39,822 nucleotides of DNA from Candidatus Zapsychrus exili. Lineage in GTDB: Bacteria; Omnitrophota; Gorgyraeia; Zapsychrales; Zapsychraceae. Below, one piece after another: positions 13,286 through 38,550 of the stretch; positions within the stretch are counted from its first letter, which is position 1; each line of letters begins with the position of its first letter. The notes below the pieces were generated by a model, which saw nothing but the letters and a program-made list of their open reading frames with translations, was not told the origin of the DNA and ran no database searches. The DNA lies in contig JAVCCJ010000057.1 in the NCBI GenBank assembly GCA_030765585.1, forward strand, positions 1-39,822. The letters run 5' to 3'. Both the position numbers and the translations under genes were made by a program.

Positions 13286-14176
13286 TTACTTGTTACTGAT
13301 TGCTGTTAAATAAGATTCTTCTGCCATAAAAGAGCTCCTTACCAAGGGTCCGCTTACAACAGACTTAAATCCCATCCTCAATCCTTCTTCTCTGTACAAA
13401 TCAAATTCTTCTGGCGAAACAAAACGATTAACCCTTACGTGTCTTTCTGTCTTGCTTGGCGCGAGATATTGTCCAATAGATAAAATATCGCAACCAACAC
13501 CTAGCAAATCTTTCAGCAAACTAAAGACTTCATCCTGAGTTTCACCCAGCCCAACCATAAAACTAGACTTAACAGAATAGTCAGAAGATGCTTCTTTCAA
13601 AGCTCTTAAAACATCTAGTGAGCGATGATATTCTGCTTGTGACCTAACGCTCGAAAATATTCTTTCTACGGTTTCTATATTGTGTCCAATAACATCTGCC
13701 TGTGTTTTTGACACCACCTCTAAACTTGTCTTGTTGCCAAGAAAGTCCGGAATTAATATCTCCACTTTAGCCTCTGGCAAAAGAGATTTAATTGCCAACA
13801 CTGTTCTCTTAAACTGGCTAGCACCTCCGTCATCAAGATCATCCCTTGTCACAGACGTTACAACAACGTACGACAGCTTTAATCTCTTAGATGCTAATGC
13901 AACATTATTAGGTTCATCTAAATCAATAGGTAACGGCTCACCTGAAACAACTCCGCAAAATCTGCAACAACGACTGCAAACATCTCCTAAAATCATAAAA
14001 GTAGCTGTGCCACGCTCCCAGCAATTTCCTGAGTTTGGACAACTAGCGCTCTTGCAAACGGTGTTAATGTTTAAATCTTTTAAAATATCATCAACCCAAT
14101 CAATCTTGGATTTCTTAGGAATTCTTTGCTTAAACCAACTTGGTAGGACTAAATTGTCTAAATTACCTAAAGACAC
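13286..14176 (-). CDS. lipA: Lipoyl synthase
   Basis: CX4CX5C (CKSASCPNSGNC), CX3CX2C, TSVTRDDL, HNIETV, VRSSF. Confidence 0.96.
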   Translation of the reverse strand: MSLGNLDNLVLPSWFKQRIPKKSKIDWVDDILKDLNINTVCKSASCPNSGNCWERGTATFMILGDVCSRCCRFCGVVSGEPLPIDLDEPNNVALASKRLKLSYVVVTSVTRDDLDDGGASQFKRTVLAIKSLLPEAKVEILIPDFLGNKTSLEVVSKTQADVIGHNIETVERIFSSVRSQAEYHRSLDVLRALKEASSDYSVKSSFMVGLGETQDEVFSLLKDLLGVGCDILSIGQYLAPSKTERHVRVNRFVSPEEFDLYREEGLRMGFKSVVSGPLVRSSFMAEESYLTAISNK

Positions 14177-14680
14177 TTAAGACTTTACCTTTTTATGAAT
14201 AGCATTAAGCTGTTCTTTAAATTTTATTTCTTCTTCTTTTGTAGCGTAATCAACAATGAGTTTGCCGTCCAAATGGTCTAGTTCGTGCATAAATGCTCTT
14301 GCCAAAAGATCATCAAAACTTTTCTGCAAAACCTCTGAAGACAAATCTAAATATTTAACAAGAATTTTCTTAGGGCGAGTTATATTAATTTCTACACCCG
14401 GAACGCTTAAACATCCCTCTTCAAGACATTCTGATCCAGTTGCTTTTATCATCTCAGGATTAATAAACACAAGAGGTCCGTCTCCAATATCAATAACAAA
14501 GATTCGTTTATTAATTCCAATTTGAGACGCAGCTAGCCCAACACCACCCTCGTTGTACATAGTTTCTATCATTAAACTAACGAGTATGCGCTCAGAAGGG
14601 CCAATCTCATCTACTGCAGTAGATTTTACTCTTAGGCAAGGATCTCCATCAAGCCTGACTTTTAATTTTGTTTTTGTCAT
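14177..14680 (-). CDS. def: Peptide deformylase
   Basis: GVGLAASQIG, EGCLS and HELDH all intact. Confidence 0.95.
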   Translation of the reverse strand: MTKTKLKVRLDGDPCLRVKSTAVDEIGPSERILVSLMIETMYNEGGVGLAASQIGINKRIFVIDIGDGPLVFINPEMIKATGSECLEEGCLSVPGVEINITRPKKILVKYLDLSSEVLQKSFDDLLARAFMHELDHLDGKLIVDYATKEEEIKFKEQLNAIHKKVKS

Positions 14681-28975: not shown

Positions 28976-29332
28976 CTAAATATCTTTTCCTTTATCTTGC
29001 TCTGCTTCGTTTGATTGTTCTCTTCCTAATTTCTTTAACGCTTCATTTAAAAATGAAAACTTACTATCCTCTTGTTCTTGAACATACTCATAAAACTCAC
29101 ACTTAATACAATTAAATAACTTCTTTGAGAATATACCTTGTTTTTCTCCTCCACAAAATGTTCCAGCAACAACCCAACAACATCTTCCAGCATTCTTTCC
29201 GTTATTGATACCTTCTACGCTTTCTTCAGATGCAGCCGGACAAACTCCAAGACTTTCAGTCTTATCTCCACCCGGTTCTCTTCCACATTTCTTAAATTCC
29301 CAACAATTCTTTTTATCGCTTTTATCTTCCAT
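28976..29332 (-). CDS. Two-CW domain cysteine-rich protein
   Basis: NCWEFKKCGRE..CPA..GRCCWVVAGTFC..CIKCEFY. Confidence 0.85.
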   Translation of the reverse strand: MEDKSDKKNCWEFKKCGREPGGDKTESLGVCPAASEESVEGINNGKNAGRCCWVVAGTFCGGEKQGIFSKKLFNCIKCEFYEYVQEQEDSKFSFLNEALKKLGREQSNEAEQDKGKDI

Positions 29333-29531
29333 ATGCCGGCCTTCCACAAACCTCTAAGATTTTAATTCTGCTATTGTTTTCTTTAACTCTTCTAGTCTTT
29401 TTGAGTCTTCCATAATTAAATAATCCTAAAAATGTTTTAAACGTTTTAAATTATAACTAAGAAATTTTGGCAGGACTTACTTAGAAGGTTATTCTAGTAT
29501 AAATATTTATATTAGTAAATAACATTATTAG

Positions 29532-30115: not shown

Positions 30116-30475
30116 TTAAAACTGACCTGTTTTTAACATAACTAGGGTACAGGCATTAACTGTTTCAATGCCCTCTTCTTTCGCCTTATTCTCTAAATTA
30201 AAATTTTCCGCTCCGGGATTAAAAATAATCCTTTTAGGTTTCTTGGCAATAAGATCATCTCGAATCAAATTTGATATAGCAGCGTTAACATACAAAGTGA
30301 CTATATCAATGGACTCCGCAATTTCTTTAATTGAATCATAGACTTTAATTCCTTCAATATCCTTAATTTTCTTATGAATAGGATAAACCTCATGCCCCTT
30401 TTCTTTTAAAAACATCACGGCTTTATAAGAATAGCGATGTACTTTGTTTGATGCTCCCACAACTACTACTTTCAT
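30116..30475 (-). CDS. CoA-binding protein (YccU-like)
   Basis: VVGASNK..RYS, IFNPGAEN, ACTLVML. Confidence 0.9.
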   Translation of the reverse strand: MKVVVVGASNKVHRYSYKAVMFLKEKGHEVYPIHKKIKDIEGIKVYDSIKEIAESIDIVTLYVNAAISNLIRDDLIAKKPKRIIFNPGAENFNLENKAKEEGIETVNACTLVMLKTGQF

Positions 30476-30488
30476 TTTTAAAACCCCT

Positions 30489-31895
30489 TTATCTTTTTAA
30501 CCAATAATCGGCAATAGATTTATAAAGCGTGCTTACAGCCAATATCGCACAATGGCAATGATCTTTTGGCAAATATCTTAATTCCTTAATAATTTTTCCT
30601 GGCGATATTTGCAAAACTTCTTGGATAGTCTTACCAAATGCTAAATGAGACGTCATTGTCCCACAGGCATATGTAAAAAAACAACCTCTTGTATAAAACT
30701 TAATGTCCTTAATGACATCTTCATTAATTGTAAGATAAAATTCCATTTCGTCTCCGCAAGGTCCTTTAATATGCGCTGACCCGTCTGGGTCATTCATTCT
30801 TCCAATATATTTCTTTTGAGTTATAGATCTTATAATGTGTTGAGGTATTTCATTATTATTTTGTGCTCTAACTGTCTGCAAATGCTTTTCTTTTTCAATC
30901 AACTCGTCTAACGAAAAATCAGAAACTATAGAGAATCCTGCATTTTTAATCATTTTATACGTTTCTAATCTAGACTCTCCTCTCGTATTTAAATACCCAT
31001 TAATGAATAATGAATTCGCTGGATAAAGTGCCAAAGACTGCATTTCTTTTAAATAAACTTCTCGACCTGCGGCTAAACGTATTTCCGAGTCAGGATTCAT
31101 CAATCTAAACAGACAAAGCACTCTTAAGCAATATTCAGGAGATAAGTCTAATTTTACTTCTAAAGACACTCCTTTGTTAGGTAAATAAAAATTAATAGGA
31201 ATAGACTCAACCTTTAACTTTCTTGTAGAACAGACCATATCATAAATATCATCTGCCGTTTCTCCCATACCAATAATAACGCCAGAACATACGTGTAAAT
31301 TTGCATTATGAGCTTCTTTTAAAGTTTTAACTCTATCTTCATAATTATGCGTACTACAAATATCAGAATAATAACGACTTGAAGTATTTAAATTATGATT
31401 CAATCTATCAAGCCCTGCTTCTTTTAAAATTTGAGCTTTTTCTTTATCCAAAAAACCATGAGAAACGCAAACCTGAATAGAATAAGTTGACTTAATTCTT
31501 TGAATCAATTCAGCTAAATAACGTGCCCGCTCTAACGACATTGAACGTCCGGAGAAAACCATACAATATCTATGCGCTCCACCTTCATAGGCCTGCTTAG
31601 CTTCAGCCATAATTTGTTCATCAGACTTCATGGAATATTCATTTATTTGAGTATCCGCCTCTGCTGATTGAACACAATATTTGCAATCTTCTGTGCACTG
31701 TCCATTTTGCACATTATTAATAACATGAATAGTTACTTCTCTACCAAAATATTTCTTACGAACCTCATAAGCCGTATTAAGCAATGGCAACAATTCAATC
31801 TCCTTAGAAGATAAGATAACATGAGCGTCTTTCCTTGATAAAGGCTCATTTAACAATCTCTGTTCTATTAAGTGAGAGTAAAATTCATTATTCAT
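30489..31895 (-). CDS. bioB: Biotin synthase fused to a C-terminal IscU/NifU-N Fe-S scaffold domain
   Basis: CTEDCKYC, RYCMV, QVCVS, NHNLN, VCSG, IRLAAGRE in about aa 1-335; GPCGD, GC..TYAC, LPKDHCHCA in about aa 350-468. Confidence 0.92.
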   Translation of the reverse strand: MNNEFYSHLIEQRLLNEPLSRKDAHVILSSKEIELLPLLNTAYEVRKKYFGREVTIHVINNVQNGQCTEDCKYCVQSAEADTQINEYSMKSDEQIMAEAKQAYEGGAHRYCMVFSGRSMSLERARYLAELIQRIKSTYSIQVCVSHGFLDKEKAQILKEAGLDRLNHNLNTSSRYYSDICSTHNYEDRVKTLKEAHNANLHVCSGVIIGMGETADDIYDMVCSTRKLKVESIPINFYLPNKGVSLEVKLDLSPEYCLRVLCLFRLMNPDSEIRLAAGREVYLKEMQSLALYPANSLFINGYLNTRGESRLETYKMIKNAGFSIVSDFSLDELIEKEKHLQTVRAQNNNEIPQHIIRSITQKKYIGRMNDPDGSAHIKGPCGDEMEFYLTINEDVIKDIKFYTRGCFFTYACGTMTSHLAFGKTIQEVLQISPGKIIKELRYLPKDHCHCAILAVSTLYKSIADYWLKR

Positions 31896-31896
31896 A

Positions 31897-32295
31897 TTAA
31901 AATGTCACCAGTTTATCGCTTTCTTTAGTAATATCATACATATCCTTCATCGTTGAAATTGGGCACATTTCCGTTTCAGCTATATTTCTAGTTGCCCTCA
32001 CGGGAATTAGGGCATCTTCTGGCCCTGACTGGGTGGAAGCCCTGATTTCAGATTCTTCCTGTTCGCGAGATTTAATACAGCTACCACAAGCAAGAATCGC
32101 TCCCCCATCTTTCATAAATTTCTCTGCCTGTTGAACCGTATTAAACTTATCTGTACTTATTTTTTGATATTCAACACCTTTGCCCATAAAAAAAATTTTT
32201 ACCTCATCTTTTTGAGATAGGCAAAAATTCGCATAACGAAGAGCATTCCAGCTTGTTTCAACATCATTGCTTGAAATCACAACTCCTATTTTCAT
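31897..32295 (-). CDS. DsrE/DsrF-like sulfur-relay protein with a 26-aa in-frame insertion
   Basis: ETSWNALRYAN, FFMGKGVE, ACGSC, CPISTMKD, SDKLVTF. Confidence 0.85.
   Translation of the reverse strand: MKIGVVISSNDVETSWNALRYANFCLSQKDEVKIFFMGKGVEYQKISTDKFNTVQQAEKFMKDGGAILACGSCIKSREQEESEIRASTQSGPEDALIPVRATRNIAETEMCPISTMKDMYDITKESDKLVTF
31967..32049. mobile_element. 73-nt GC-rich structured insertion flanked by 5-bp direct repeats
   Basis: ATTTC at 31967-31971 and 32045-32049; 39/73 GC; 78 nt in total, which keeps the frame. Confidence 0.6.
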
Positions 32296-32318: not shown

Positions 32319-33032
32319 TTATACAGTTATTACTTGCCCTGCTTTCATATCAAGAAAATTATCTCTATACTTTTCCTTAAAAATATTTTCTGCATCTATT
32401 CCGCTACAATGAGTTGCGCCTACCTTGTTGACTTTTAATTTTACAAATTCTTCAACAATCTGCTTAATTTCTTTATTTGAATGATTCTTCAAATGAAATC
32501 CTCCCAAAACAGCATAAAATTTCTTGATGCTTAACTGCGACTTAACTTTTTCAAGTATTTTAATAATCCCAGGATGAGCACAACCAGTAATAACTGAAAA
32601 TCCTTTTTCTGTCTTAACAATTAAAGATTGTTCTGATATGTTTTTGCCTTTATAGGTTCCAACAATCTCTCCGCTAGAATAAACCCCTATATTAACTCGC
32701 ATAAAATGAGTAACTTCTTTTAATTTTGCTGAAGACTCTAATATTTTGCGCTTAAAAACAGATCCAAATCCAGAAGATGAAAAAACATTTATATCTGAAG
32801 TTTTTGCAAGGATATCCCATAATCCACCTGGATGATCCCAATGATCATGTGAAATTACAATATCTTCAATAAGTGAAATATCGATTTCTAATTTATTAAT
32901 ATTATTCAGCAAATAATCACCTTTCCCTCCTGTATCAAATATAATTCGATTATCAATTAAAAATGACAATCCCCAACCAGCAGATAAATCTTTTCGTATA
33001 CTTTCACTATTAAATAATACCTTAACATCCAT
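32319..33032 (-). CDS. MBL-fold metallo-hydrolase (COG1237-like)
   Basis: WGLS, FDTG, SHDHWDH, TGCAHPG, GGFH, HCSG. Confidence 0.88.
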   Translation of the reverse strand: MDVKVLFNSESIRKDLSAGWGLSFLIDNRIIFDTGGKGDYLLNNINKLEIDISLIEDIVISHDHWDHPGGLWDILAKTSDINVFSSSGFGSVFKRKILESSAKLKEVTHFMRVNIGVYSSGEIVGTYKGKNISEQSLIVKTEKGFSVITGCAHPGIIKILEKVKSQLSIKKFYAVLGGFHLKNHSNKEIKQIVEEFVKLKVNKVGATHCSGIDAENIFKEKYRDNFLDMKAGQVITV

Positions 33033-33058: not shown

Positions 33059-33514
33059 TTATATAATATTCTCAATAATATTAGAATGATCTATTATTAA
33101 CTTACCATTTAAATGATCCACTTCATGCTGAATTACTTTTGCCAATAAACCGTTAGTCTTTAATTCAATTTTTTCATTGTTTTCATCAAACCCGATAACA
33201 ACTATTTCAAACGGTCGCTCAACCTCAACTTCTATACCCGGAAGACTCAAACATCTTTCTTTCATCTTATCAATATATTTTTTATTAATAATTTCTGGGT
33301 TAGCTATCTTCATTGCGCCTTCTCCAATGTCTGCAACAATTAATTGCTTAAGAATCCCTACCTAAGGAGCGACTAGCCCAATGCCTTTACAATGATGCAT
33401 TGTAGAAACCATATCATTTAAGATTTTTACATCATCCGTAGTTACTTTTTCTAATGGCATACATTTCTGTTCTAAAACTTTATCTGGAAATATTCTGATA
33501 TCAAATAAACTCAT
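33059..33514 (-). pseudogene. def: Peptide deformylase pseudogene
   Basis: ATG at 33514: MSLFDIRIFPDKVL...GIGLVAP*VG with TAG at 33362-33364 in place of the conserved Gln; ERCLS instead of EGCLS; QHEVDH retained. Confidence 0.88.
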
Positions 33515-33516
33515 AT

Positions 33517-34377
33517 CTAAACCCTTTTTAAAACAATATCACCTAATTCTACCCCAGCATATTTAGCAATTACTGGACACTTTGCCCTAAATAAAAAATA
33601 TATATTTTCTTTCTCTTGACTCAATGCCTCATAATTTCCCTGCCCCTTGCTAATAATCAAATCTGCATCTTTATAAACTTTCAAGAATTCTTTAGAACAA
33701 TATTTTAAAACTGTTCCAGGAGCATCAACTCCACTTGACATAATTTTAGTTCTTTTATCAAGCCCGCATTCTTGAGCATCCTCAATAAGAGCATCGTTGA
33801 GAACCGGCTTATCCCTTACAGCAAGAATAATAGCTTTATCTTCAGGAATTTCTTCTATAAAAACCCTGTCAAAAACAATTTCACCAGCATTGTCTGCTAA
33901 ATATAAAATTTTCTTAGCATCCTTTAATTCATATTTAAACTTCTCATAATCAAAAATAGTTTTGTTAATATGAGCAAAATCGTTTGTAAATAATTTTTCA
34001 AGTTCCTCTTCAATATTCAAACTATTATTAGCCGCATAATCAATAACATTACCTGCAATAGCAATTTCAACTGCCGTTAAAAGTTTTTCCTCAGAAGACC
34101 AAACTTCTTCTTTAAGTCTTGGGTACAAAGCTAGCGCCTTACGATTACTCTCTTTTTTAATACTTTTATAGATATCTTTATTCCCGTATCTTCTCTCCAT
34201 AACTTTATGAATTATGCGAGACATTTCAGGAGGCGAACATTCTAATGAAATCTTTGGAATAATCTGAGAAATCTCATTAAGTATCTCTTTATGAATAATT
34301 TCATTGTCGTCAACAAGCCGTGCCATTTCAAGCGCACTTTTTATAAAACAAGGTATACAATCTAAATACGTTCTCAT
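33517..34377 (-). CDS. DUF89/ARMT1-like damage-control phosphatase
   Basis: CIPC, AGNVID, DNAGEIVFD, LNDA, SKGQGNYE, AKC. Confidence 0.92.
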   Translation of the reverse strand: MRTYLDCIPCFIKSALEMARLVDDNEIIHKEILNEISQIIPKISLECSPPEMSRIIHKVMERRYGNKDIYKSIKKESNRKALALYPRLKEEVWSSEEKLLTAVEIAIAGNVIDYAANNSLNIEEELEKLFTNDFAHINKTIFDYEKFKYELKDAKKILYLADNAGEIVFDRVFIEEIPEDKAIILAVRDKPVLNDALIEDAQECGLDKRTKIMSSGVDAPGTVLKYCSKEFLKVYKDADLIISKGQGNYEALSQEKENIYFLFRAKCPVIAKYAGVELGDIVLKRV

Positions 34378-35222
34378 AATAATTCTTTCCAAATATTATT
34401 TATTAATCCATCATACTTGCCGTTTGCATGTTCTAATATTGTCTTGCCTTGTACCATTGCTTCTACAACCGTCTTATCAAAAGGGATTTTGCCTACAACA
34501 GAAATATTGTTTTCTGCACAATATTTTTCAATTTGTTCAGTCATCCCTAAATTTAAAGTATATTTATTAACAACAAGCTTAACTGGAACTTTAAAATGTT
34601 GAGCAACTTCAATAACACGTTTCGCATCATGTAACCCAGATAAGGTTGGCTCAGTAACAACCAAAGTGCAACTAACCCCCGACAAAGAAGCAATAACTGG
34701 ACATCCAATTCCTGGCGGACCATCAATTATTACATATTCACAATTTTGTTTTTCTGCTAATTCCTTAGCTTGTTGTCTGACAAGCGAAACTAACTTCCCC
34801 GAATTCTCTTCAGCTATTCCAAGCCTCGCATGAACAAACGATCCGAACCGGGTATCAGATATATACCATTCGCCTGACTCATTTTCCTGCATCTCTATTG
34901 CTTGTGCAGGGCAAACATGACTACAAAATGAACACCCCTCACACGCAATAGGATCTACGATAAATTCATCAGAAATTGCTTTATATCGGCACAATTCAAT
35001 GCATCTTCTACATTGAGCACACTTATCTTTATCAATAACCGCAGTCTTTCCGCTTCTAAACTCATTTTTCTCTTTTACTGTAGGAGACAATAAAAGATGT
35101 AGATCTGCTGCGTCAACATCACAATCAACCATCACTTTATTCTTTACCAAAGCGGCAAACGCACCAGTTAAAATGGTCTTTCCTGTTCCACCTTTTCCAC
35201 TAATAATTAAAATTTGTTTCAT
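34374..35222 (-). CDS. MinD/ParA-type P-loop ATPase with inserted 2x[4Fe-4S] ferredoxin (COG1149)
   Basis: SGKGGTGKT, DCDVDA, two CxxCxxCxxxC motifs, ENSGKLV, DGPPGIGCP. Confidence 0.92.
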   Translation of the reverse strand: MKQILIISGKGGTGKTILTGAFAALVKNKVMVDCDVDAADLHLLLSPTVKEKNEFRSGKTAVIDKDKCAQCRRCIELCRYKAISDEFIVDPIACEGCSFCSHVCPAQAIEMQENESGEWYISDTRFGSFVHARLGIAEENSGKLVSLVRQQAKELAEKQNCEYVIIDGPPGIGCPVIASLSGVSCTLVVTEPTLSGLHDAKRVIEVAQHFKVPVKLVVNKYTLNLGMTEQIEKYCAENNISVVGKIPFDKTVVEAMVQGKTILEHANGKYDGLINNIWKELL

Positions 35223-36079
35223 GTTTTTACCTGAACTTGCTTTTTAATTTCATCAAAAAGACTTATAAACTTAGTTTTATACTCTGGAAATAATTCAACT
35301 ATAGACTCTCCCTTTGAATAACTTTTGGCAATCTCTTCGCTAAAAGGAATCTTCATTAATACTGGAATATTTTCTTCATTGCAATAATTCTCAGTTTTAT
35401 CATCGCCTAAATCACATCGATTTATCACAACACCAAAAAGAATATCTAATTTACGCATAGCTTCAACTGCTAATTGAAGATCATTTAGACCAAATGGTGT
35501 TGGCTCTGTCACAAGAACACAAAAGTCAGTTCCTCCAACAGCAGTAATAACGGGGCATGATGTCCCTGGCGGCACGTCAATAATAACCGTTCTTGTTGGA
35601 TTAATGTGCTGTTTAACTTGACGTATAACTGGCGGAGCCATTGCCTCACCGATATTTAATTTTCCATGAACAAATTGAATATTATCTTTTTCACCAAACT
35701 CTATAATGCCAATTTCCCTATTCATTTCTGTAATAGCGCCCTGTGGACACAAATACTGACACGCTCCGCATCCGTGACAAAAATTAGGAAAAAGCAAAAT
35801 ATTACCTTTACTTTTGTCTGTTTGAGGAATTACGGCAATAGCATTATATTCACATACCTCACGACATTTACCGCAATATGTACATTTTTCTTTATCGATA
35901 ACAGGGACTGGAATAAATGCATTCTTTTTCTCAACTATGACAGGGTTTAAAAACAAAGCAGCATTAGGTTCCTCAACATCGCAGTCCATCAGCTGAACAT
36001 TACTTAATGACAAAGCTAAGTTTACAGCTATAGTTGTTTTTCCTGTTCCACCTTTTCCGCTAGCTACAGAAAGTATCAT
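35219..36079 (-). CDS. MinD/ParA-type P-loop ATPase with inserted 2x[4Fe-4S] ferredoxin (COG1149)
   Basis: SGKGGTGKT, DCDVEEPN, two CxxCxxCxxxC motifs, DVPPGTSCP, EPTPFG. Confidence 0.92.
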   Translation of the reverse strand: MILSVASGKGGTGKTTIAVNLALSLSNVQLMDCDVEEPNAALFLNPVIVEKKNAFIPVPVIDKEKCTYCGKCREVCEYNAIAVIPQTDKSKGNILLFPNFCHGCGACQYLCPQGAITEMNREIGIIEFGEKDNIQFVHGKLNIGEAMAPPVIRQVKQHINPTRTVIIDVPPGTSCPVITAVGGTDFCVLVTEPTPFGLNDLQLAVEAMRKLDILFGVVINRCDLGDDKTENYCNEENIPVLMKIPFSEEIAKSYSKGESIVELFPEYKTKFISLFDEIKKQVQVKT

Positions 36080-36091
36080 TATCTAATTACC

Positions 36092-36697
36092 TCATTTACG
36101 TATTATTATTAATTCCTGACACTTTGAACTAAATTTCTCTACTTGATATCCCTTGACCGTTATATACTCCACTACCTCATTTAGAGTACAATGACCTGAG
36201 CTGTGATCTCTTCCTTCACTTTTGTGCAACTCCTTAATAATTTTAAAACCCTCTTTATTAAAATCGCTTATAACAATCTTTCCATTTAAAGCAATAACTC
36301 TTAAGAATTCATCAATAACTTTTAGCGGTTGACTTAAATGATGAATTAAATTAATGCCAAAAGAAACATCGAAACTGGCATCAGCAAAGTGTAAATGTTG
36401 AGCATCAGCAACAACAAAGTTTACTTTATCTAATAATCCCAAATACTGAATATTCATTTTGGCAAACTTTTGCTCCTCTTCAGATATATCTACTGTAGTA
36501 AATTGATATCCACTTTTCACTAAAGCAACTGCAAAATGCCCCTTTCCAGTGCCAAGTTCTAGTATTCTTCCTTCAATCGGTTGAACATTTTTAATTATAA
36601 AATATCTTTCCTCATCAATATCATATCCAAAACTTTTAAATAATTTTATTCTGGCACAATACTGTTGATGGTTTTCTAAAATGTTTTTATCCATCAT
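36092..36697 (-). CDS. Class I SAM-dependent methyltransferase
   Basis: ILELGTGKG, VDIS, DAQHLHF..SFD, IHH. Confidence 0.88.
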   Translation of the reverse strand: MMDKNILENHQQYCARIKLFKSFGYDIDEERYFIIKNVQPIEGRILELGTGKGHFAVALVKSGYQFTTVDISEEEQKFAKMNIQYLGLLDKVNFVVADAQHLHFADASFDVSFGINLIHHLSQPLKVIDEFLRVIALNGKIVISDFNKEGFKIIKELHKSEGRDHSSGHCTLNEVVEYITVKGYQVEKFSSKCQELIIIRK

Positions 36698-36769: not shown

Positions 36770-37135
36770 CTAAATTAAACCTGATTTTTCTTCAGCATTT
36801 GGACCCTTTGTTGATTTAAACTCCCCGTTATTAAAACTATCTAAGGCTTCTTTAACAGTTCCTCGAACATCAAGGATAACTTCAATCCCTGCTGATTCTA
36901 AAGTCTGAGATGCATTAGGCCCAACTTTTCCAGTAAGTAGAGTTTTTATTTGTTTTTCAGCCACAAGTTGTCCTGACTGAACACCAACGCCTCCCATACC
37001 ATTCACATTTTGATTTTGAACTGCTTCAAATTGAGAAGTATCAGTATCAACAAAAATAAAATACTGACAACGACCAAAACGCTGATCCACCTTAGAATCT
37101 AAATTATTTCCTTCAGATGTTATACAGATATTCAT
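36770..37135 (-). CDS. NifB/NifX-family cofactor-binding protein
   Basis: RFGRCQYF, GGVGVQ, TGKVGPNA. Confidence 0.9.
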   Translation of the reverse strand: MNICITSEGNNLDSKVDQRFGRCQYFIFVDTDTSQFEAVQNQNVNGMGGVGVQSGQLVAEKQIKTLLTGKVGPNASQTLESAGIEVILDVRGTVKEALDSFNNGEFKSTKGPNAEEKSGLI

Positions 37136-37545
37136 TTTTCACCTCCATCATGTTCGCAAACCTCTTCATTTGGATGATCGCAAACTGTTTTATCCAAACC
37201 ATAGCCTTTGCCACCGCCTGGCTTACAAAAACTTTCTCCACCTTTTAAAGTCCCTTCTTCTAACTTCCTTATAACATCACTTATTTTTCCTTCTATACCA
37301 ACAATAGTTTCCATTCCGTATTCTTGAAAAAATCCGGTAGCGCGCATCCCCATGCCCCCAGTAATGATGCATTGTGCGCCTTTTTCGTTTAAAAATCCTG
37401 GAATAAGTCCTGGCTGATGTCCTGGGTTTTCAATGATATCTTGTTTTATTACTTTTCCATCTTCAATATCAACAATCGTAAAGGATGGACATCTACCAAA
37501 ATGAGCAGATACATAGTCATTGTCTGTTGAAATAGCAACTTTCAA
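37132..37545 (-). CDS. NifB/NifX-family cofactor-binding protein with Cys/His tail
   Basis: SAHFGRCP, NPGH, GGMG; tail CKPG..CDH..CEH; TTG start after GGAGG. Confidence 0.9.
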   Translation of the reverse strand: MKVAISTDNDYVSAHFGRCPSFTIVDIEDGKVIKQDIIENPGHQPGLIPGFLNEKGAQCIITGGMGMRATGFFQEYGMETIVGIEGKISDVIRKLEEGTLKGGESFCKPGGGKGYGLDKTVCDHPNEEVCEHDGGEK

Positions 37546-37629: not shown

Positions 37630-37959
37630 TTAAGCTACAGAAGAATCATTAGGTTCTAACTCTTTAATCCTAGCGTTAATTATTTTAATCTCATTCTGCA
37701 TTGAAGAAGATTGCGTTTTTAACAACTTTGTTTCTTCTTGCGATGAGAGCGTAGGACTATAAATATTAGAATTTATCCAACGAAACCCCATGCCACACCC
37801 AATACCTCTTCGGAAACCTCTACTGCCACTACCTCTGGCAACGCTCCGACCTGATAAAATATTAGAATAACCTGCCGCTGAAAATCCAGAGCAATATCCT
37901 GCCCTACGACCTGTAATTGAACCCATTCCTATAGGCCCAGTTCTATCTCCACCTGGCAT
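37630..37959 (-). CDS. DUF5320 family protein
   Basis: MPGGDRTGP.GMGSITGR.AGYC, Gly/Arg-rich middle, coiled-coil end; RBS GGAGG. Confidence 0.88.
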   Translation of the reverse strand: MPGGDRTGPIGMGSITGRRAGYCSGFSAAGYSNILSGRSVARGSGSRGFRRGIGCGMGFRWINSNIYSPTLSSQEETKLLKTQSSSMQNEIKIINARIKELEPNDSSVA

Positions 37960-37980: not shown

Positions 37981-37999
37981 GTTAATGACAACCATTATC
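37981..37999. promoter_or_regulatory. Fur box upstream of DUF5320
   Basis: GTTAATGACAACCATTATC, 16/19 to consensus GATAATGATAATCATTATC. Confidence 0.75.
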
Positions 38000-38017
38000 A
38001 TTAAATAATAAAAAAAT

Positions 38018-38488
38018 TTATTTTGTACTACATTTTTTGCAAATACCAAAAAACTGAATTAAATGGTCCGTAATGTTAAACTCATACTTTTTAGATAATC
38101 CATCTTCCGTATTTTTTAAGAACTTAACTTCATCTTTCATAAAATCAGAATAATCAATAACCTTATAACACTTTTTGCAAACTAAATGATGATGATGGCC
38201 CTTTCCACTATAATTGTCAGAAAGCTCATATTTAGATCTTCCCTCTCCAAAGTCAAACTTGACGACCATTCCCATATTTACAAGCATTTCTAAATTTCTA
38301 TATACGGTAGTCAATCCAATATTTGGATAAAATTTATGCACAGCCAAATAAATATCTTCGGCGCTTAAATGCTCCTGTGTATTTCCAAGAACATCAAGTA
38401 TCGCTTCTCTCGGCTTTGTCATTCGATAGCCACAACACTTAAATTTTCCGTGCATCCATCGTGGTCCTGCTCCATCCTTGTTTGGCAT
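38018..38488 (-). CDS. fur: Fur-family transcriptional regulator
   Basis: RMTKPR, HLSAED, GLTTVYRNL, HHHHLVCKKC, GICKKC. Confidence 0.93.
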   Translation of the reverse strand: MPNKDGAGPRWMHGKFKCCGYRMTKPREAILDVLGNTQEHLSAEDIYLAVHKFYPNIGLTTVYRNLEMLVNMGMVVKFDFGEGRSKYELSDNYSGKGHHHHLVCKKCYKVIDYSDFMKDEVKFLKNTEDGLSKKYEFNITDHLIQFFGICKKCSTK

Positions 38489-38501
38489 ATTTTCTCCTAT
38501 T

Positions 38502-38520
38502 GATAATGATTGTCATTAAC
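38502..38520. promoter_or_regulatory. Fur box upstream of fur
   Basis: GATAATGATTGTCATTAAC, 16/19 to consensus. Confidence 0.8.
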
Positions 38521-38521
38521 A

Positions 38522-38550
38522 AATATATACTCTAAAATACAATCTGTCAA
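38522..38550 (-). promoter_or_regulatory. Sigma70 promoter of the fur operon
   Basis: Minus strand TTGACA-17 bp-TATATT, immediately followed by the Fur box. Confidence 0.7.

Follow-up and report, generated by a model that had tools for sequence, protein, structure and literature searches.

How a Type I biotin synthase (BioB) regains the [2Fe-2S] cluster that it sacrifices is an unresolved question, and BioB turnover limits microbial biotin production. A locus in the genome of Candidatus Zapsychrus exili (Omnitrophota) raises the question of whether cluster repair can be carried by the enzyme itself. On contig JAVCCJ010000057.1 (assembly GCA_030765585.1), whose 39,822 nucleotides are referred to here as the window, a single unbroken open reading frame (ORF) of 468 residues at 30489-31895 on the minus strand fuses BioB to a U-type (NifU_N) domain, the domain type of the scaffold proteins IscU and NifU. 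The original prediction, made from the letters alone, took this protein for a self-regenerating biotin synthase with its own scaffold, possibly fed sulfur by the DsrE-family protein encoded next to it. We favor, at a probability of roughly 45%, a plainer reading, in which two operon neighbors were fused into one chain of two working proteins and each half keeps its own job. Cluster reloading of BioB by the tethered U domain is plausible as well, and we consider a weaker form of the predicted mechanism, with the domain as a carrier rather than a DsrE-fed scaffold, about as likely as a neutral operon fusion.

Apparently, no BioB-U fusion has been described so far: no title or abstract start returned by our literature search, which was thin on subscription papers, describes a fusion of BioB to IscU or NifU. 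The words “fusion” and “fused” do not occur in the main text of the study that defines Type I BioB (PMC10813225), whose Table S2 and Figures S4-S5 may bear on C-terminal extensions and on the residue His57 discussed below. The accessible text of a preprint that mentions bioB counts in Omnitrophota (bioRxiv 10.64898/2026.06.07.730766) contains no NifU or IscU.

A stable fusion of BioB and a U-type domain

The fusion and its parts are as follows.

30489..31895, minus strand: bioB-U fusion ORF, 468 residues (ORF, domain, profile and bridging-contig evidence)
30891..31895, minus strand: Type I biotin synthase domain, residues 1-335 (motifs, His57 at the E. coli Ser43 position, structure match)
30861..30890, minus strand: linker, residues 336-345 (alignment and model)
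30489..30860, minus strand: U-type (IscU/NifU_N-fold) domain of the ORP-operon subfamily, residues 346-468 (ligands, structure match)

Domains, profile score and alignment agree on the predicted architecture of a complete BioB, a linker and a U-type domain: Pfam places Radical_SAM at residues 66-220 (E 9e-26), BATS at 233-321 (E 1.5e-19) and NifU_N at 354-467 (E 1e-19), and the protein scores 361.1 bits in the bioB model TIGR00433, with a cut-off of 225. Every ligand motif that had been named could be placed by alignment to E. coli BioB and IscU (annotated K-12 record), and all are present in each of the 11 fusion proteins described below. The CX3CX2C motif of radical S-adenosylmethionine (SAM) enzymes, C67/C71/C74, corresponds to C53/C57/C60 of E. 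coli BioB; the auxiliary-cluster ligands C111, C143, C203 and R273 correspond to C97, C128, C188 and R260, and N166 to N151. In the U domain, C380, D382, C405, H448 and C449 correspond to C37, D39, C63, H105 and C106 of E. coli IscU. The motif LPKDH (residues 442-446) does occupy the place of LPPVK (99-103 in E. coli IscU), as had been pointed out; the loss of LPPVK is, however, family-wide, and unremarkable in a genome in which no HscB was found.

A single-chain structure model built from a deep alignment (predicted local distance difference test 93, predicted template modeling score (pTM) 0.77) is compatible with either fixed or unfixed packing of the domains, while a model from a shallow alignment reached a pTM of 0.67 with a poor U domain. 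The deep-alignment model matches BioB of B. obeum (8VCW; Z 42.3) and of E. coli (1R30; Z 39.0, root-mean-square deviation 2.1 over 308 residues), and the best match of residues 350-468 is A. fulgidus IscU (4EB5_C; Z 21.2, root-mean-square deviation 1.7 over 119 residues). The linker, predicted to prolong the last BioB helix (329-347), is fixed in length and variable in sequence across the 11 fusions (38% mean identity over residues 336-349), and a check for internal restarts found no conserved in-frame start for a separate U protein within it.

The fusion is real and stable. A search with residues 300-468 yielded 17 proteins from 164 candidates, of which 11 (the query and 10 others, 468-475 residues long) share all three domains. 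The 10 others represent as many further 90%-identity clusters, 65-84% identical to the query over residues 300-468; three fusion clusters contain 16 further or identical member records, and the named full-length members are labeled plain “biotin synthase BioB” of Omnitrophota, e.g. OGX22773.1. In addition, a metagenome record (L045), which may come from the same sample as the window, is 100% identical over 2163 bp, and a 225-bp contig of sequencing run X2 covers 30728-30952 and bridges the linker with 0 differences (X1 or X2 may be the source sample). Recurrence, member records, L045 and the bridging contig together rule out an assembly artefact or the one-off loss of a stop codon. Mean identity among the 11 fusions is 79% in the U domain and 77% in the barrel, with 38% in the linker, and Nei-Gojobori ratios of nonsynonymous to synonymous substitution rates (dN/dS) for 10 pairs of 5 DNA sequences are 0.04-0.12 for the U domain and 0.05-0.11 for the barrel, values that are rough because dS often exceeds 1. 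Judged by these ratios, both halves are under purifying selection. Among three of the fusion loci (L046, L065 and L017, from genomes G167, G166 and G106), dS is 0.35-0.62 in the U half and 0.94-1.84 in the BioB half, which suggests recombination inside the fused gene.

It arose once, in a subset of Omnitrophota. In BioB trees (55-60 sequences, quick method) the 11 fusion proteins form one clade, with a support of 99 in the Shimodaira-Hasegawa-like approximate likelihood ratio test (SH-aLRT). The fusion occurs in 5 of the 168 genomes of the order, spread over two families: the host genome of the window (G000, 96% complete), G151, G166, G106 and G167, whose fusion locus is complete in L046. Among 401 evenly sampled genomes of the phylum, none besides G000 and G151 has it. 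A balanced BATS+U profile was searched over 1.84 billion representatives, a search that very divergent fusions below about 105 bits would escape; among its best 150 hits, one 50%-identity cluster spans both halves and no independent BioB-IscU/NifU fusion from another lineage appears.

The second bioB and its operon

The BioB half looks like an ordinary Type I enzyme. It shares with E. coli BioB (1R30; TIGR00433) the radical-SAM motif, the fold and the set of residues by which Type I is defined (Cys at 97, C128, C188, R260 and Asn at 151; PMC10813225), and it very probably has Type I biotin synthase activity. Type II BioB, with a 4Fe-5S cluster and Ser at 97, Cys at 43 and His at 151, was rejected as an assignment: at these positions the fusion has Cys111, His57 and Asn166. 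Where it departs from E. coli BioB within the domain, with His at Ser43 and Asn at Asp155, it does so in common with the housekeeping BioBs of Omnitrophota; the larger differences are the C-terminal U domain and a location outside the bio operon, as an accessory copy. His57 itself (window 31725-31727), at the position of E. coli Ser43 and Type II Cys52, is present in 11 of 11 fusions and in 34 of 35 housekeeping Omnitrophota BioBs (the 35 being the loci returned, of 149), and could possibly be an extra auxiliary-cluster ligand in this lineage.

The statement that no other bio genes are present holds for the window, where the nearby methyltransferase, with a score of 58, falls short of the BioC cut-off of 185, but misleads about the cell. 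Elsewhere in G000 there is a standalone bioB (contig C64), 53% identical to the fusion, located between a FabX-like gene and trxB, with the same TIGR00433 score of 361 bits; a birA-bioF-bioH-bioC-bioDA operon (contig C98); and an AccB-type biotin carrier. A bioB match was found in 149 of the 168 genomes of the order, and all five fusion genomes keep a standalone copy, from which it follows that the fusion is an accessory copy on which the cell does not depend. The host also has a nifS-nifU pair (contig C48); no BioY, HscB or SufBD was found in this 96% complete genome, where HscB was sought above cut-off and HscA was not searched separately.

The fusion occupies the twelfth place in a series of genes on one strand that begins with a Fur-family regulator and ends with a CoA-binding gene. 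In the order of transcription, its surroundings are:

38501..38550, minus strand: sigma-70-like promoter (11 of 12; 38550-38522), followed by a Fur-type 7-1-7 palindrome (38501-38515) (motif search)
38018..38488, minus strand: Fur-family regulator, first operon gene (domain/profile scan)
37986..38000, no strand assigned: second Fur-type 7-1-7 palindrome, ahead of the DUF5320 gene (motif search)
37630..37959, minus strand: DUF5320 gene (domain scan)
36770..37545, minus strand: two NifX/Di-Nase-domain genes, Orp8-like (domain/profile scan)
36092..36697, minus strand: class I SAM methyltransferase, not BioC by cut-off (domain/profile scan)
34374..36079, minus strand: pair of MinD-like ATPases with two 4Fe-4S ferredoxin motifs each, Orp3/Orp4-like (scan; description in PMC6345978)
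33517..34392, minus strand: ARMT1-like damage-control phosphatase (domain/profile scan)
33059..33514, minus strand: peptide deformylase gene with an in-frame TAG near 33364, probably a pseudogene (domain scan, sequence)
32319..33032, minus strand: metallo-beta-lactamase-fold hydrolase (domain scan)
31897..32295, minus strand: DsrE-family gene, a general operon member, with a 26-residue insertion relative to its relatives (domain scan, locus comparison)
30116..30475, minus strand: CoA_binding_2 protein, last operon gene (domain scan)

The palindromes were identified with the Fur-type 7-1-7 consensus. Within the window alone the box is not significant (3 matches against 0.92 expected, a number reached by 7 of 100 shuffles). 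Upstream of 54 related fur genes, which are kin rather than independent cases, the best match has at most 3 mismatches in 20 and at most 4 in 48, compared with 2.4% and 18% of shuffled controls, respectively; this conserved operator, often TGGAAACCATTTTCA, lies 27-50 nt before the Fur-family gene. No such palindrome was found at the housekeeping bioB or at nifS. Since the palindrome follows the promoter, is conserved upstream of fur and is missing from those two genes, expression of the fusion probably answers to a metal-sensing repressor and not to biotin.

The association of bioB with this operon type is older than the fusion. G109 supplies the sister of the fused BioB half, a bioB that is not fused and sits in an ORP-like operon (SH-aLRT 97-98). 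This copy (L156:1501-2520, plus strand) is interrupted by a single TAA and reads AAGW instead of AAGR; it is either decaying or affected by a sequencing error. A further five extra copies without a fusion are located within or next to ORP-like operons, in G125, G024 (two), G030 and G031; two bioB matches in G141 are a single split housekeeping gene. Given that the unfused sister is itself operon-borne, and that a U gene is present in only 2 of the 6 loci of unfused operon-borne bioB, bioB is associated with the operon more closely than with U, and joined it before the fusion. The free tree separates the operon-borne copies, and an approximately unbiased (AU) test did not reject a single clade (p 0.159), so that 1 to 3 recruitments are compatible with the data.

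Four of the extra copies form a rewired BioB-like group on a long branch, above the TIGR00433 cut-off: L064:4978-5970 (plus strand), L204:8693-9649 (minus), L205:8260-9231 (minus) and L206:7578-8549 (minus), from G024 (twice), G030 and G031. At E. coli numbering, C97 is changed to Gly, R95 to Cys, N151 to His and R260 to Cys. The pattern fits the uncharacterized “Type G” motif of PMC10813225, and the group may bind a different cluster.

The existence of these relatives, the redundancy of the fusion with the housekeeping bioB, and its placement behind a Fur-type operator, apart from the bio genes, would all suit a repurposed BioB that inserts sulfur into a substrate other than dethiobiotin for the metal-cofactor chemistry of the operon. 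We nonetheless consider this very unlikely for the fusion itself, as the equivalents of R95, N151, H152, N153, R173 and N222 match those of the 35 housekeeping BioBs and its TIGR00433 score equals that of the housekeeping copy.

The U-type domain as scaffold, carrier or neighbor

The U domain has 259 relatives among the GTDB genomes scanned; the locus counts that follow rest on the best 80 (L066-L145). In 77 of these loci U is a standalone gene of less than 200 residues, and the other three are fusions. Its neighbors are those of the operon described above: the MinD pair in 66 loci, the methyltransferase in 62, NifX in 57, the metallo-beta-lactamase-fold hydrolase in 56, Fur in 48, Mrp in 23, DsrE in 19, CoA_binding_2 in 8, and bioB in 3, the fusions only. 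No NifS or other desulfurase match occurs in any of the 80. The fetched flanks of the 77 unfused U genes contain no bioB; many of these loci are incomplete, but bioB is equally absent from the 42 that extend over at least 15 kb. As a subfamily, the standalone U proteins (259 GTDB hits) carry the signature GRMNDP, C411 and LPxDHxHC and lack a desulfurase neighbor, and no characterization of them was found in the literature searched.

The domain has the fold and the ligand positions of IscU, the NifU N-terminal domain and MisU (PF01592; 4EB5 chain C), and these ligands do not vary among fusions or among standalone copies; we predict with moderate confidence that it binds a cluster. It differs from these proteins in falling below all NCBIfam cut-offs (49.9 against 192.4 bits for IscU, TIGR01999; 41.9 against 92.5 for SufU, TIGR01994; 82.6 against 187.9 for the NifU/MisU model, TIGR03419 or TIGR02000), in lacking LPPVK, in having mostly replaced its IscS contacts, in two extra cysteines, C411 and C447, and in belonging to an ORP-operon subfamily that is not found beside a cysteine desulfurase. 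C411 is family-wide (76 of 77 standalone copies). E. coli IscU contacts IscS through Y3, Y11, G38, V40, K42, K59-G64 and K103 (PMC2854127); in the fusion Y3, Y11, V40, K42, K59, Y61, G64 and K103 are replaced by I, I, E, E, H/Y, S/N/R, F and H, and of the contact positions the glycines and C63 are kept. Standalone copies largely share the change at two of these positions, with Glu at the K42 position in 76 of 77 and His at the K103 position in 68 of 77. Because these residues are replaced here while the genome's own NifU keeps Y3, F11, K59, Y61 and K103, the comparison favors a role as holder or carrier over that of a scaffold that docks a desulfurase; the substitutions could suit another partner.

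These results speak to the full form of the prediction, an autonomous scaffold on which the fusion would assemble a new cluster, drawing the sulfur from DsrE. The intact ligand set is in its favor, as is DsrE, which ends 1 bp upstream of the fusion ORF, as had been noted, and lies directly upstream in G166 too. But eight IscS-contact positions are replaced, five of which the genome's NifU keeps, and desulfurase matches are missing from all 80 U loci. In the four readable fusion loci DsrE is intact upstream in only two, a broken remnant in G151 and absent in L046, whereas it is found in 18 of the 77 unfused U loci, all without bioB. On this distribution DsrE belongs to the operon and is not a partner of BioB, and the suggestion that it feeds sulfur to the fusion is not supported. 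The “own scaffold” is not supported either, for a domain that is normally a standalone operon gene (77 of 80), lacks most IscS-contact residues and is fused to unrelated neighbors elsewhere. A self-sufficient scaffold of this kind is thus quite improbable.

Slightly less so, though still unlikely, is a relay in which U would bind zinc and pass sulfane sulfur to operon clients or to a damaged BioB cluster. Its model is SufU, a U fold with Cys/Asp ligands that acts as a zinc-dependent sulfurtransferase (PMC13066941), and the extra C411 and C447 and the DsrE and TauE-type sulfur genes of the operon would agree with such a role. Against it stand the SufU score given above, the lack of SufBD in the 96% complete genome, the invariant equivalent of IscU His105 and the best structural match, which is IscU.

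In a weakly resolved U tree (132 columns), the fusion U adjoins a standalone operon U of G156 (SH-aLRT 94); the G156 operon has the order TauE-DUF364-U, and L046 has DUF364-bioB+U, as expected if bioB landed directly upstream of U. In our favored reading of two working proteins, then, an extra bioB first joined an ORP-like operon for Fe-S and metal handling that is under Fur-family control, a step to which the loci themselves attest. Trees and synteny show that in one lineage it came to lie directly upstream of the resident U gene, where the frames would have been joined through the linker of about 10 residues. The conserved residues suggest that the BioB half would still work as an ordinary Type I biotin synthase, sacrificing its [2Fe-2S] cluster to insert sulfur into dethiobiotin, as an accessory enzyme expressed with the operon and not under BirA. 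The U half would keep its old job of holding or relaying an Fe-S cluster for the MinD-like ferredoxin ATPases, together with Mrp. BioB would receive its clusters in trans from NifS-NifU, just as its standalone counterpart does, and turnover would gain little from the tether.

Other fusions of the same domain type fit a habit of joining neighbors. Partners include a methyltransferase, TrmO, ARMT1, a thioesterase, a metallo-beta-lactamase-fold hydrolase, another radical SAM enzyme, a flavin reductase and Mrp; they are mostly families of the same operon, and several have no Fe-S cluster. Errors of gene calling may account for some of these fusions, and four of the long hits fall outside the core subfamily. 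One protein (P0116), with a MiaB-like N-terminus and half a U domain, is apparently chimeric, and two (P0048 and P0074) have three tandem NifU_N domains each. The fused domain is the only U of its subfamily in G000, which is enough in itself to explain its conservation. Among fusions the domain is 77-88% identical where MinD is 81-85% identical, which falls inside the range of the standalone copies or at its upper end (5-95%: 54-88%).

Several observations weigh against two halves that merely share a chain. All extra bioB copies of the order with readable context lie within an ORP-like operon or beside its genes, and this constant company suggests a functional link between BioB and the operon. 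While most other U fusions are clusters of 1-2 sequences (six in the search with residues 300-468), BioB-U forms a stable family, with at least 11 clusters, a fixed linker length and dS above 1; apart from BioB, only Mrp, an Fe-S carrier, recurs as a partner. The fusion also has conserved residues of its own: C447 is present in 11 of 11 fusions and in 9 of 77 standalone U proteins, and H146, F148, N299 and Y313 in the BioB half and Y353, Y409 and E438 in the U half are specific to it.

We tentatively entertain a second reading, in which NifS-NifU or Mrp would fill the attached U domain, the U domain would renew the sacrificed auxiliary cluster after each turnover, and BioB would be a client of the ORP-like operon. 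More exactly, U would be loaded with a [2Fe-2S] cluster in trans and would reload the spent auxiliary site, within the chain or across the BioB dimer, allowing multiple turnovers, a benefit for which the fusion was kept. This delivery route seems possible, at somewhat less than an even chance. By its Type I motif the enzyme must have its whole cluster rebuilt (PMC10813225); the five IscU ligand positions are invariant and the U domain has a dN/dS like that of the barrel; the family is stable with a fixed linker, and bioB is repeatedly associated with the operon; and the host Fe-S system is minimal, with NifS-NifU and no HscB or SufBD found. Precedents are the in vitro transfer of a cluster from IscU to LipA (PMC13692748) and the BioB-BsaP fusion of Pseudonocardia (PMC11099021). 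Against delivery stand the single origin, the promiscuity of the domain in fusions and the lack of bioB in all 77 unfused U loci. Operon-borne bioB is often without U, standalone BioB suffices in most relatives, the auxiliary cluster of E. coli BioB lies about 9 Å below the surface (PMC10813225), the linker is short and helical, and cluster binding by the U subfamily is only predicted. In E. coli, additional Isc proteins are reported to have brought no increase in biotinylation (PMC2964542), a mild caution that cluster supply need not limit BioB.

The fusion makes BioB cluster repair testable in one polypeptide, and repair in cis directly so, because the standalone paralogue and the unfused sister are built-in controls. 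If reloading proves true, this would be the first single-polypeptide, multiple-turnover Type I BioB. Even a negative outcome would provide the first biochemistry on a widespread U subfamily that has lost the surface on which a desulfurase normally docks, and would inform the question of why further copies of bioB recur in ORP-like operons.

Related systems and further features of the locus

The precedents for a helper at BioB are similar only in part. Mycobacterial BsaP and the Pseudonocardia BioB-BsaP fusion likewise place a helper at the BioB C-terminal region, and BsaP is proposed to act at the [2Fe-2S] cluster; however, BsaP is required (PMC11099021), while the domain added here is of the NifU_N family and the standalone BioB in the same genomes does without it. 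Repair of LipA by NfuA or IscU in trans also serves a sacrificial auxiliary cluster that needs a carrier or scaffold, but that system consists of separate proteins and a [4Fe-4S] cluster, and the accessible text mentions no fusion (PMC13692748). For Type II BioB, searches for a helper failed (PMC10813225).

The operon resembles the Desulfovibrio ORP cluster and MrpORP (PMC6345978), and is likened to DVU2103-DVU2109 by description only. Shared are the paired MinD-like ATPases with two 4Fe-4S motifs, the Di-Nase/NifX genes, Mrp in relatives and the theme of Fe-S trafficking. Mrp is absent from this operon copy and directly follows the fusion in 2 relatives. In contrast to the sigma-54 activator of Desulfovibrio, there is here a Fur-family regulator with a conserved 7-1-7 operator, and no ORF for such an activator (OrpR) was found among the operon genes; U and, in some lineages, bioB are further differences.

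A second ORP-like operon in G000 (C15:137-6631) has Fur, the NifX pair, the MinD pair, a flavoprotein and Mrp, and no U gene was found in it. The insertion in DsrE comprises 26 in-frame codons (window 31960-32060), is GC-richer and absent from relatives, and is not repeated as a dispersed element in this genome. Besides the probable deformylase pseudogene of the operon, the window contains an intact-looking deformylase gene at 14177-14680. A protein with two CW domains (NF045718) is encoded at 28976-29347, 770 bp beyond the end of the operon. Finally, a LipA-like radical SAM gene (identity from sequence) lies at 13286-14176, 16 kb from the fusion; LipA is the other cluster-sacrificing enzyme, and this copy is unfused.

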